Shown: positions 28,541 through 40,912, counted from the stretch's first letter. The stretch is 64,000 bases of DNA from a virus (IMGVR_UViG_3300032086_003797:64001-128000); one strand, 5' to 3'. Made by a program: numbers and translations. The notes: generated by a model from the letters alone, not told the origin.

Positions 28541-28587
28541 TTGCTTGACACTTTGATATAGTGTGGTATTATAAATTGTAAGGGAGA
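28541..28587 (+). promoter_or_regulatory. Early promoter/leader cassette, copy 6
   Basis: TTGACA-16nt-TATTAT AAATTGTAAGGGAGA. Confidence 0.85.
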
Positions 28588-28592
28588 GAGAA

Positions 28593-28784
28593 ATGATTCA
28601 AGTAGGTTCCAAAGTTAGTCACCGTTTTCACCCGCTTTACCACAACAGTATTGGTAAAGTCATTAGCCTTGAGGGTCACCAGTTTGATGGTCACCAGATG
28701 GTCGTTGTGGATTGGGGTGTAAGTAAAAAAAGCATGTACCCCATCCAACATCACCACGCAGAAGCATTACGAAAGGAAGCATAA
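28593..28784 (+). CDS. Hypothetical small beta-barrel-like protein
   Basis: MIQVGSKVSH; follows cassette. Confidence 0.65.
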   Translation: MIQVGSKVSHRFHPLYHNSIGKVISLEGHQFDGHQMVVVDWGVSKKSMYPIQHHHAEALRKEA

Positions 28785-29098
28785 TGGCTATTGCAAATCC
28801 CGAAGTTGAGTTTCACCTGCAAGACTTTATTGGTCAGTGTGTTGAGATTATCAGTGAGCACTACAGTTCTAAGTTGCCAAACTTGGAGGTTCCCGAAGTC
28901 AAAATCAAAGAGGGTGGCAAGTATTACAAAATCTTTAAGCAGCAGGGCGAATACAACTCACACGTTTGGTTCTTCGTCAGCAAAGAGGACGGCTTTATTT
29001 GGAAGCCTGCTTCTTGGAAAGCTCCTGCTCGCAACTTCCCTCGTGGAAATATTCTTGAAGACAAAGCAAAAGACGTCATTGGCGTCTACGGAATCTAG
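28784..29098 (+). CDS. Conserved phage-type hypothetical protein
   Basis: GGKYYKI..FV..DG.IWKPASWKAPA..RGNI. Confidence 0.7.
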   Translation: MAIANPEVEFHLQDFIGQCVEIISEHYSSKLPNLEVPEVKIKEGGKYYKIFKQQGEYNSHVWFFVSKEDGFIWKPASWKAPARNFPRGNILEDKAKDVIGVYGI

Positions 29099-29397
29099 GA
29101 GGAAATGATGGATTACGAATTAAGAGAATTCGATGAGGATATTTTTATCCAATGGTTTACAGAGGAGGCTCGTAATGGTAGGATGCCACCAGAGCGAATG
29201 CAAGAACCCAATTGGGGAGTGAGTCCTGAGTTTCTCATCAACTCTTCTTTTGATGCGATCGCAGCCGACCGAGCAAAATGGCTGCAACCATTGATGTTCT
29301 TGGCAGGCATTAGCGTTGGTATGATTGGCGGAGCACTTTTGAGTTTAGAATATCCTATTTATTGGCTAACATTATAAGCCCGTAGGAGGTAAACCCC

Positions 29398-29427
29398 ATG
29401 AAGAAAAAATACACACGTCGAAGATAA
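29398..29427 (+). CDS. Candidate leader peptide MKKKYTRRR
   Basis: Perfect AGGAGGT SD at 29384-29390, 7 nt before ATG; ends CGT CGA AGA TAA. Confidence 0.4.
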   Translation: MKKKYTRRR

Positions 29428-29505
29428 GTGTTAGGGGTCAACCCGACCGATCTGGCAGGAAGCATAAAGAGCCAGCGTCCCTACCTTCAGTAACCACATA
29501 CCTTT

Positions 29506-29590
29506 TGAAGAGTTGCGTGTGGAAAACGGTTTGTAGGGTCAGATACACATGGAACAGGAGCCCCAGACGTACTTGGGCGAAAACTCTTCA
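29506..29590 (+). ncRNA. Unidentified 85-nt structured RNA candidate
   Basis: Perfect 9-bp closing stem TGAAGAGTT/AACTCTTCA ending 5 nt before tRNA-Arg. Confidence 0.45.
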
Positions 29591-29595
29591 CATAT

Positions 29596-29672
29596 GGTCC
29601 AGTAGCTCAGTTGGATAGAGCAACGGTCTTCTAAACCGTGGGTCGCAGGTTCAAATCCTGCCTGGATCACCA
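29596..29672 (+). tRNA. tRNA-Arg(TCT)
   Basis: Cloverleaf, anticodon loop CT-TCT-AA, GGTTCAAATCC T-arm, encoded CCA. Confidence 0.95.
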
Positions 29673-29684
29673 AGGAGTTTTGAG

Positions 29685-30287
29685 ATGTTGAAAGTATTAG
29701 GGAAGTTGCCGAGGGAGTTAGTGGTCGCTGTTAGTGGTGGTCCTGATTCTATGGCTATTTTAGATTTCCTTAATAATAATCATAAGGTGACAGCATATTA
29801 TTTTGATCATGGCACAACATTCGGAGAAGAGGCGTACCATTTCCTTAAGAGCTACTGCGCAAGTAGAAAAATCCCATTTGTAACCAGCGTTTTATCAGAA
29901 TCTCGTCCAAGCGGCAAGTCACTTGAGGAACATTGGCGGGATGAACGCTATAAACGATTTCACGACTATAACCTACCCATCGTAACTGGGCATAATTTAG
30001 ACGATGTTATTGAATGGTTCCTGTTCTCATCTGTGCATGGTAAAGGAAAAGTTATTCCTTATCAAAATAAAAATGTTATCCGTCCTTTCCTATCTACCTC
30101 GAAGCAAAGCTTGATTGACTGGTGTACAAGAAAAGGTATTCCGTTTCTGACTGACCCTGGTAATAGTAACAGAAAATTTATGAGAAGTATTATCAGACAC
30201 GACATGATGCCTATCGTAGAAGAAATTAACCCAGGTATTCAAAAAACATTTAAAAAAATTGTAGAAAGCAGGTATAATAACATCTAA
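29685..30287 (+). CDS. tilS: tRNA(Ile)-lysidine synthase, N-terminal catalytic domain only
   Basis: AVSGGPDS PP-loop, R..RY, TGHNLDD..E, IRPFL, DPGN. Confidence 0.9.
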   Translation: MLKVLGKLPRELVVAVSGGPDSMAILDFLNNNHKVTAYYFDHGTTFGEEAYHFLKSYCASRKIPFVTSVLSESRPSGKSLEEHWRDERYKRFHDYNLPIVTGHNLDDVIEWFLFSSVHGKGKVIPYQNKNVIRPFLSTSKQSLIDWCTRKGIPFLTDPGNSNRKFMRSIIRHDMMPIVEEINPGIQKTFKKIVESRYNNI

Positions 30288-30296
30288 CAGCACTGT

Positions 30297-30373
30297 GGTC
30301 CACTAGCTCAATTGGTTAGAGCAACTGACTCATAATCAGTAGGTTCGAGGTTCGATCCCTCGGTGGACTACCA
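30297..30373 (+). tRNA. tRNA(CAT), probably tRNA-Ile2 (lysidine-modified)
   Basis: Anticodon CAT, C4:G69/C5:G68 pairs, no initiator features, adjacent tilS, encoded CCA. Confidence 0.85.
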
Positions 30374-30374
30374 T

Positions 30375-30450
30375 GCCCGAATGGCTCAATTGGTAGAGCA
30401 GCGGTTTTGTAAACCGAAGGTTGTAGGTTCAAGTCCTACTTTGGGCACCA
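30375..30450 (+). tRNA. tRNA-Thr(TGT)
   Basis: Cloverleaf, loop TT-TGT-AA, encoded CCA. Confidence 0.95.
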
Positions 30451-30458
30451 AGAACAAT

Positions 30459-30487
30459 AAGCTCCCGAAAGGGGGCTTTTTTGTTTT
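30459..30487 (+). terminator. Intrinsic terminator
   Basis: AAGCTCCC-GAAA-GGGGGCTT plus T-run. Confidence 0.85.
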
Positions 30488-40589: not shown

Positions 40590-40912
40590 GGGGGTAAACG
40601 GTATCGATTGATAGGGAAATAGAAAAGGTGCAAGGGTGAGGGAAGCGTGGCTCACTAAAAACGCTTAACTTCTAATCGCAAACGACGATTTTCAACTAGC
40701 ACAAGCAGCTTAATAACCTGACTTGACTTGAGGCGACGGCAGCCAAAAAACAGAAAGCCGTATTGTGTCTTGTAAGTGCTTTTGATTATCTCAGCCATAA
40801 TAAGATGATCTAGTCAAGTGGTCTGTCCGACGATAAAAACAGTTCTAACCTTGTGAATGACCTCTCTGTGGAACTAGGCAAGACGGGAGTTCGATTCTCC
40901 CTACCTCCACCA
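40590..40912 (+). ncRNA. ssrA: tmRNA, tag ANDDFQLAQAA
   Basis: GGGGGTA/TACCTCC-ACCA acceptor with G3:U70, T-arm GGGAGTTCGATTCTCCC, pk1 GTGAG/CTCAC + AAGCGT/ACGCTT, tag 40678-40713. Confidence 0.93.

Follow-up and report, generated by a model that had tools for sequence, protein, structure and literature searches.

Phage tRNA clusters are now regarded as serving codon supply and as a counter to defences that target tRNAs. To our knowledge, how phages control and process these clusters is barely known, and we know of no function for rnaC and rnaD, two RNAs encoded in the tRNA operon of phage T4. Very short ORFs with arginine codons have been studied experimentally in Escherichia coli, where AGAAGAUAA minigenes of three to eight codons accumulate peptidyl-tRNA-Arg4 (PMC2490762) and where both rare codons and inefficient stops provoke trans-translation (PMC3985003). 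Phage tmRNAs are rare: only 2.3% of phage genomes carry one, and in marine phages a one-piece form is unusual (PMC9004378). Conserved structured RNAs of phages have been compiled in an IMG/VR csRNA catalogue, the entries of which are at most 151 nt long (PMC10690425).

We analyzed a window of 64,000 nucleotides, with a G+C content of 42%, taken from a 174.6-kb IMG/VR virus record. A preliminary description of this window had proposed that a short arginine-rich ORF and mutually exclusive RNA pairings upstream of a tRNA operon sense the shortage or cleavage of Arg-tRNA. We found that the mini-ORF and the RNA that follows it are a real and uncatalogued pair – the RNA belongs to no Rfam 15 family, and the IMG/VR csRNA catalogue was compared by description only. 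Comparative sequence evidence indicates that the carriers of this module are a clade of uncultured marine phages, with the conserved RNA at the head of a tRNA operon. All parts of the module and of its tRNA operon lie on the plus strand.

Neither part of the module is conspicuous in a single sequence. The nine-codon ORF is unremarkable by itself, and the predicted minimum free energy (MFE) of the region from 29378 to 29595 is no better than chance (-54.3, against a dinucleotide-shuffle mean of -52.35; z -0.44). With these single-sequence signals null, it is only the comparison of about 100 related loci that reveals the RNA and the mini-ORF to be under selection.

As the preliminary description reported, a Shine-Dalgarno (SD) sequence and an ORF encoding MKKKYTRRR and ending CGT CGA AGA TAA are present at 29384–29427. 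The SD sequence, read directly from the DNA, is AGGAGGT (29384–29390) and lies 7 nt ahead of the ATG of the mini-ORF (29398–29427; ATG AAG AAA AAA TAC ACA CGT CGA AGA TAA). The SD, the ATG, and the in-frame TAA are kept in 80 of 80 distinct upstream contexts, with the TAA occupying one constant position of the RNA alignment. In the 60 nine-codon members, positions -10 to -7 hold a conserved purine-rich GG(G/A)A block, which can also be seen in each of the 80 contexts. The encoded peptides are of 29 different kinds and have 5, 6, 7, 9, 11, or 12 residues (e.g., MNKRR, MMTRRR, MKKKYTKRR, and MKQEIAKTRRR), and all of those in the 80 contexts end in [R/K][R/H]R. The genes upstream of the module vary between phages while the mini-ORF and RNA stay, implying that the mini-ORF travels with the RNA and not with a neighbouring gene. 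The last three mini-ORF codons overlap the 5' start of the conserved RNA block.

Consistent with translation, variability within the 60 nine-codon members peaks at third codon positions – with entropies of 1.27, 1.37, and 1.57 at codons 3, 5, and 6, compared with 0.12–0.65 at the second positions of the same codons. Arg/Lys, Thr, and Ser are retained via different codons, and the C-terminus exchanges CGT, CGA, CGG, AGA, AAA, and AAG, the ACN codons, and AGT and TCT for Ser. This coding signature, third-position variation within a kept frame that has an SD, argues that the mini-ORF is genuinely translated. Unlike the other codons, which wobble, the last two have frozen third positions. Among the nine-codon members, the penultimate codon is CGA in 57 of 60 and CAC in the other 3, and the last codon is always Arg (AGA in 40 of 60, CGA in 20 of 60) and is followed by an invariant TAA-G. 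This pattern implies a second constraint on these bases, either codon identity or RNA function, and the frozen third positions are compatible with selection for slow codons. The CAC (His) members are three metagenome loci (L148, L116, and L174) with peptides ending KHR; they show that the RNA does not strictly require the bases replaced. The E. coli minigene and trans-translation work makes the frozen Arg-Arg-stop end noteworthy.

Two other roles for the mini-ORF were considered and rejected. Recoding at a frameshift or readthrough pseudoknot, or reinitiation, is contradicted by single-nucleotide indels at alignment columns 31, 50, and 90 that break the frame; the triplet after the mini-ORF stop also varies (GTG, GCG, or GAG). 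A promoter inside the mini-ORF, with GATAAG as its -10 element, would be without the key T at position 6, and the distance to the ATG varies.

Covariance-model matches place the conserved RNA block at 29416–29590 (model R1, 175 positions), with ~165 nt lying 3' of the stop codon. Across all 19 TilS-linked IMG/VR loci, the stretch from the mini-ORF to the first tRNA is 80–96% identical at the nucleotide level, and the TilS proteins of the same loci share only 63–92% amino-acid identity. An 18-sequence IMG/VR alignment contains 102 invariant positions among 175, many of them unpaired. R1 has at least 97 matches, at least 87 of them distinct, scoring 131–216 bits and coming from IMG/VR and from contigs of marine metagenomes, Tara Oceans among them; the metagenomic members were drawn from 80 of 114 pattern matches, and these family counts are thus lower bounds. 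The 174.6-kb record contains a single copy of the RNA.

Searches outside this group returned no further members. No blastn match to the RNA was found among 50,697 GenBank phage records. A scan of the window with Rfam 15 at gathering score left the RNA unmatched, and at E values up to 10 the sole match within 29378–29595 was a chance snoRNA at 15 bits. Twelve bacterial contigs match a 20-base pattern, but 0 of 12 fit model R1, and we thus dismissed these matches as chance. Among viral pattern matches, 6 of 26 for a first pattern and all but one of the new matches for a second were likewise attributed to chance.

The family shares a consensus fold of five helices (H1–H5) and a pseudoknot, PK1, that joins a loop to the 3' tail. 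Across 87 distinct sequences, 98.9% of cells in this fold pair, and compensatory changes on both sides occur at 9 pairs (116 cells). The covariation score was reached by 0 of 500 column shuffles, and pairing falls to 28–47% in slid-partner controls. The preliminary description had named conservation of the mini-ORF and covariation in related phages as a check to make, and both were found – in 80 of 80 contexts for the mini-ORF and at the 9 double-change pairs for the RNA.

H1 (29434–29444) is a hairpin that starts 6 nt past the stop codon and pairs GGG (29434–29436) with CCC (29442–29444) across a 5-nt loop. Its closing pair covaries (GC in 70 sequences, AU in 11, CG in 4, and unpaired in 0), and its first loop nucleotide is variable (G, C, or U). 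H2 (29448–29477) pairs CG (29448–29449) and CUGGC (29452–29456) with GCCAG (29471–29475) and CG (29476–29477). All of its cells pair (100%), the sole changes being one-sided replacements of C by U; its loop holds CAGGA, and its 5' strand can alternatively pair with 29538–29544. H3 (29479–29538) pairs CCCUAC (29479–29484) with GUAGGG (29533–29538) in 96.7% of cells and encloses H4; column 120 (29533) fits column 145 (29555) better than its H3 partner. In H4 (29490–29527), GU (29490–29491) pairs with AC (29526–29527) and CCACAU (29494–29499) pairs with GUGUGG (29517–29522), around an A-rich internal loop (29492–29493 and 29523–29525). The lower part of H4 changes from U-A to C-G in 10 sequences. 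Within the internal loop, columns 80 and 112 (29493 and 29525) are A.A in 42 sequences and C-G in 38, with one exception – an unusual joint exchange that points to a specific tertiary or non-canonical contact.

PK1 connects GAAGAGUU (29507–29514), within the H4 loop, to AACUCUUC (29582–29589), 6 nt ahead of the tRNA. All of its cells pair (100%), with a change from A-U to G-C in five sequences as well as G.U variants. A second pseudoknot is suggested: candidate PK2 (29531–29557) would pair UUG (29531–29533) with CAG (29555–29557), over a span that includes the conserved linker UYAGAUAC and AYAGGA. PK2 pairs in 99.2% of cells (G-U in 38, G-C in 35, and U-A in 9), and we consider its support moderate because all of the U-A cases come from one clade. 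H5 (29560–29578) is a hairpin of variable length and sequence in which all six pairs change on both sides and some members carry insertions; this variability resembles that of peripheral elements in complex RNAs. A CAGGA/AYAGGA motif is conserved at two places, in the H2 loop (29457–29463) and in the linker before H5 (29555–29560); both copies resemble SD or CsrA-type GGA sites, and the second is invariant across the family. Two additional pairings were rejected – a GCC/GGC helix (columns 32–34 with 44–46), which has its G-C closing pair in just 6 of 85 sequences, and a UAAACC/GGUUUG alternative, in which the partner column varies freely.

The first gene downstream of the RNA is, as previously described, a tRNA-Arg reading AGA (anticodon TCT, i.e., UCU; 29596–29672), which ARAGORN and Rfam both identify. 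It is followed by a 200-amino acid PP-loop/TilS-type ORF (29685–30287), a tRNA(CAU) presumed to be Ile2 (30297–30373), and tRNA-Thr(UGU). The remainder of the operon after tRNA-Arg (29685–30478) includes, after tRNA-Thr, a terminator-like site at 30459–30478, the sole such plus-strand site downstream of the element. This gene order is common to most related loci. The Arg(UCU), Ile(CAU), and Thr(UGU) tRNAs read AGA, AUA, and ACA, which account for 37% of the phage's Arg codons (the commonest), 34% of its Ile codons, and 38% of its Thr codons, respectively. Of 84 distinct downstream contexts, 39 have Arg(UCU) as the first tRNA, 30 Val, 10 Lys, and 3 Gly. Whatever its identity, the first tRNA begins 4–6 nt past the model end in 78 of the 84. 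That it is Arg in only 39 argues that the RNA belongs to the cluster head and not to tRNA-Arg; tRNA-Arg(UCU) is present in every sufficiently long cluster.

Several features of the operon are worth recording in their own right. The TilS-like protein matches only the PP-loop domain (PF01171, residues 12–172) of TilS. Bacterial TilS proteins are roughly twice as long as its 200 amino acids and have C-terminal tRNA-binding domains. The tRNA(CAT) right after the gene for this mini-TilS is presumably its substrate, tRNA-Ile2. The nearest TilS among GenBank phages is ~40% identical and comes from the Pseudomonas jumbo phage PA5oct, in which the gene does not lie beside tRNAs. A near-consensus sigma-70-like promoter ~850 nt upstream of the module (28545–28572; TTGACA, 16 nt, TATTAT, and an upstream TG; 11 of 12 matches) precedes three small ORFs, one of which encodes a DUF7717 (28784–29098). 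This promoter could drive the three small ORFs, the mini-ORF, the RNA, and the tRNA/TilS genes as one operon that extends to 30459–30478.

The phage also encodes a one-piece tmRNA (40590–40912) with the tag ANDDFQLAQAA. A tmRNA of ~91% identity is found in 5 of 5 related phage records tested, with the tag ANDDFQLALAA or ANDDFEMEMAA. Within the conserved RNA, TCCCTACCTTCA (29478–29489) matches the tmRNA 3' end, TCCCTACCTCCA (40898–40909), at 11 of 12 bases, and in some relatives without a mismatch. Two more short stretches recur in family members: GGGGTAAAC, also found at the tmRNA 5' end, and AAACGACGA, also found at the start of the tag. These matches are 9–12 nt long in family members, and the occurrence of three together is odd. 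Aligned locally with the tmRNA of the same phage, the RNA reaches a score of 19, which is not significant in the window against a shuffle mean of 17.6 +/- 2.5, and its base-pairing with either that tmRNA or the phage tRNAs is no better than that of shuffles. We also rejected a tRNA- or tmRNA-like element, as ARAGORN finds nothing there and an acceptor-like pairing is not conserved.

We then weighed the switch put forward in the preliminary description against the comparative data. Most of the complementary blocks on which it was built are present as claimed: CCCTA(C) at 29479–29484, GTAGGG at 29533–29538, CTGGC at 29452–29456, GCCAG at 29471–29475, ATCTGGC at 29450–29456, and GTCAGAT at 29538–29544. 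TAGGG is also present after the stop codon (29432–29436), at a distance of 4 nt and not the 5 reported. Its proposed pairing with CCCTA, however, is not maintained. The U17-A70 pair is broken in 51 of 85 sequences and holds in only 34, and the G19-C68 pair is broken in 15 of 85. In these 15, G19 has been replaced by A or C, which disrupts TAGGG/CCCTA, and each replacement is compensated in H1. CCCTAC/GTAGGG proved to be a real pairing, H3, but one that is part of a single fold with CTGGC/GCCAG and not a rival state. The sole conserved alternative among the described pairings is ATCTGGC/GTYAGAT. It can pair in 99.7% of cells and competes with H2 at a similar duplex energy (-7.1 and -7.3 kcal/mol), but its changes are only one-sided and pair-preserving, with none that compensate. 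Folding with blocks for the ribosome footprint, which the preliminary description had also suggested, did change the MFE structure; we gave this result no weight because the unconstrained MFE structure does not match the covariation-supported fold.

The codons and tRNAs also speak against sensing specific to AGA. The last codon is CGA in about one third of members, no phage gene for a CGA-reading tRNA lies near the module in those members, and an Arg tRNA comes first in only 39 of 84 contexts. The earlier observation that a U-tract terminator is missing stands – no terminator-like site occurs between the mini-ORF and the tRNA (29378–29595) or in the consensus fold – and the RNA contains no output module in the form of a terminator, antiterminator, or SD-sequestering element. 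Taken together, the broken TAGGG/CCCTA pairing, the single fold, the CGA ends, and the lack of an output lend no support to an attenuator of the classical or of an AGA-specific kind. Classical attenuation does not describe the module, which has no specific tie to tRNA-Arg(UCU) either, and the proposed switch that senses arginine tRNA is not borne out by the evidence and is left as a weakly supported idea. A looser ribosome-coupled switching of the RNA is possible.

The explanation we prefer, to which we would give about an even chance of being correct, is that a folded RNA with a function of its own, either an RNA gene or a leader RNA, stands first in the tRNA operon and has a terminating ribosome at its 5' edge. 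The module would consist of two parts – the translated mini-ORF and, after it, a compact ~165-nt RNA with five helices and one or two pseudoknots – and the RNA would be co-transcribed with the upstream genes and the tRNAs. A ribosome terminating at the frozen end (CGA/CAC, AGA/CGA, UAA-G) would sit on the 5' edge of the RNA. From what is general in tRNA biology, an RNase P cut at the first tRNA, 4–6 nt downstream, would free the 3' end, in the way that T4 releases its stable RNAs rnaC and rnaD. The mini-ORF ribosome may insulate or define the 5' boundary of the RNA and time its folding; since H1 starts 6 nt past the stop, it would form only after the ribosome leaves. The sequences show conservation, the fold, the translation signature, and a constant placement with respect to the mini-ORF stop and the first tRNA; RNase P processing, RNA stability, and the role of the ribosome are what we infer.

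A processed, free-standing RNA would account for the 102 invariant positions among 175, the compensatory change in PK1, the peripheral-like behaviour of H5, and a mini-ORF kept in 80 of 80 contexts. The fixed spacing to the first tRNA (78 of 84) and, by analogy, the precedent of T4 rnaD and rnaC also favour it. Such an RNA leaves unexplained why a free-standing RNA gene needs a translated mini-ORF, as well as the basic C-terminus of the peptide and the frozen codons. Furthermore, a cis role in operon processing, stability, or antitermination fits the position data equally, the single-sequence fold is not exceptional, and the T4 RNAs are non-homologous.

The alternatives differ in which part of the module they address. 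A purely cis-acting element – with a pseudoknot, 5–6 nt from the new 3' end, that protects the upstream mRNA from 3' exonucleases after the RNase P cut, or else presenting the first tRNA to RNase P or shielding the long untranslated stretch from Rho – would explain why the module is invariably found after protein genes and before the first tRNA, why it is constant though the upstream genes vary, and why the spacer from the PK1 3' strand to tRNA +1 is short and fixed (~5–6 nt). Tight spacing is, however, normal in phage tRNA clusters, as in T4, and a simple GC hairpin would suffice for such a role. The fold and its invariant loops (102 of 175 positions) exceed this need and the mini-ORF goes unexplained, and we consider the element unlikely to be of this kind. 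Ranked after it, and also improbable, is a generalised version of the sensor from the preliminary description, in which a ribosome pause on the terminal Arg codons or stop, upon Arg-tRNA shortage or cleavage, switches pairings and tunes the tRNA operon. The codon data agree with a sensor, in that the last codon is always Arg, the penultimate is CGA in 57 of 60, and the third positions are frozen, and a paused or terminating ribosome would cover the 5' strand of H1, 6 nt past the stop. ATCTGGC/GTYAGAT, pairing in 99.7% of cells, offers a competitor to H2. AGA is the commonest Arg codon of the phage (37%), every sufficiently long cluster has a tRNA-Arg(UCU), and stalling and tRNA-Arg sequestration by rare Arg codons before stops and by AGAAGAUAA minigenes have been published for E. 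coli (PMC2490762, PMC3985003). Set against these points are an unmaintained TAGGG/CCCTA pairing, alternative helices without covariation, and the replacement of AGA in about one third of members by CGA, which is read by a different tRNA with no matching phage tRNA. Arg leads the tRNAs in only 39 of 84 contexts, no output through a terminator, an antiterminator, or a sequestered SD is present, a run of two or three Arg/Lys codons is short, and the conservation of unpaired nucleotides goes beyond what a switch needs. In a more specific form, which we hold to be more doubtful again, a pause at CGA/AGA-UAA, governed by Arg-tRNA supply or by rescue through the phage tmRNA, would pick H2 or AUCUGGC/GUYAGAU and thereby gate maturation or stability of the tRNA operon.

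Two further readings start from the product of translation, and we regard both as very unlikely. In one, the 5–12-codon ORF with its slow Arg end is an active minigene that causes peptidyl-tRNA drop-off or stalling and so targets host tRNA-Arg or ribosome pools or feeds the phage tmRNA, with the RNA as the 3' structure of the minigene. The ORF is closely similar to the experimental AGAAGAUAA minigenes of three to eight codons that accumulate peptidyl-tRNA-Arg4 (PMC2490762), and a tmRNA occurs in the window phage and in 5 of 5 related genomes tested. Heavy dependence of the phage on AGA means, however, that sequestering the AGA tRNA would hurt the phage itself, and the conserved 165-nt fold would have no explanation. 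The other reading draws on the N protein of phage lambda, which binds boxB via an arginine-rich motif. By analogy, the Arg-rich peptide (..T-[R/K]-R-R) might bind the adjacent H1 pentaloop or another part of the RNA and form a small ribonucleoprotein. Such binding would fit a peptide C-terminus that keeps its amino acids although its codons have undergone synonymous and conservative changes, and it would fit the 5-nt loop of H1 located 6 nt past the stop. With peptides as short as MNKRR and a first H1 loop nucleotide that varies, we rate this as the least probable reading of all.

The preferred reading and its alternatives all concern a module that combines a complex RNA, about 100 natural variants, conservation like that of riboswitches or ribozymes, an obligatory mini-gene, and a position always at the cluster entry, in genomes that also encode TilS and tmRNA. 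Should the RNA act in trans, it would represent a new class of phage RNA. Should it instead work in cis together with the ribosome, translation status and tRNA production would be coupled in a new way, and a ribosome-gated sensor, if true, would be the first leader-peptide-controlled tRNA operon. Its small size and the ease of transferring it to other contexts make the element directly testable.

The module thus invites comparison with several known systems. With the leader-peptide attenuators (trp, his, phe, thr, and leu) it shares an SD-driven short ORF rich in codons for one amino acid, followed by a structured RNA and then by genes related to decoding that amino acid. It differs from them in having no terminator, no covariation-supported alternative hairpins, and only two to three basic codons at the ORF end, and its downstream tRNAs vary in identity and its RNA is far larger and more conserved. 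Toxic minigenes, such as lambda bar and the synthetic AGAAGAUAA series (PMC2490762), similarly consist of an SD and a very short ORF in which AGA-type Arg codons are followed by UAA. They differ from the module in that they are not linked to conserved structured RNAs or tRNA operons, and about one third of module members end in CGA. Like the structured-RNA motifs of phages in Rfam and in the IMG/VR csRNA catalogue (PMC10690425), the RNA is conserved and intergenic, shows covariation, and has a function that is not known, but it matches no Rfam 15 family.

The nearest precedent is the T4 tRNA cluster, in which tRNAs for Arg(UCU), Ile(CAU), and Thr(UGU) likewise sit together as a trio (70908–72110 of the T4 record). 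The trio is in reversed order there, and the homing endonuclease gene segB stands where TilS sits here. The small stable RNAs rnaC (species 1) and rnaD (species 2) of T4 are, like the RNA described here, non-tRNA RNAs within a tRNA operon, directly beside tRNA-Arg and with gaps of a few nucleotides. A search of the T4 tRNA region with R1 and filters off gave a best score of 5.7 bits and nothing on rnaC or rnaD; because the RNAs are not homologous, the analogy is one of logic only. Whereas rnaC and rnaD lie at the 3' end of their cluster and have tRNA-like 3' ends, the conserved RNA lies at the 5' end of its cluster, is pseudoknotted, and has a translated mini-ORF ahead of it.
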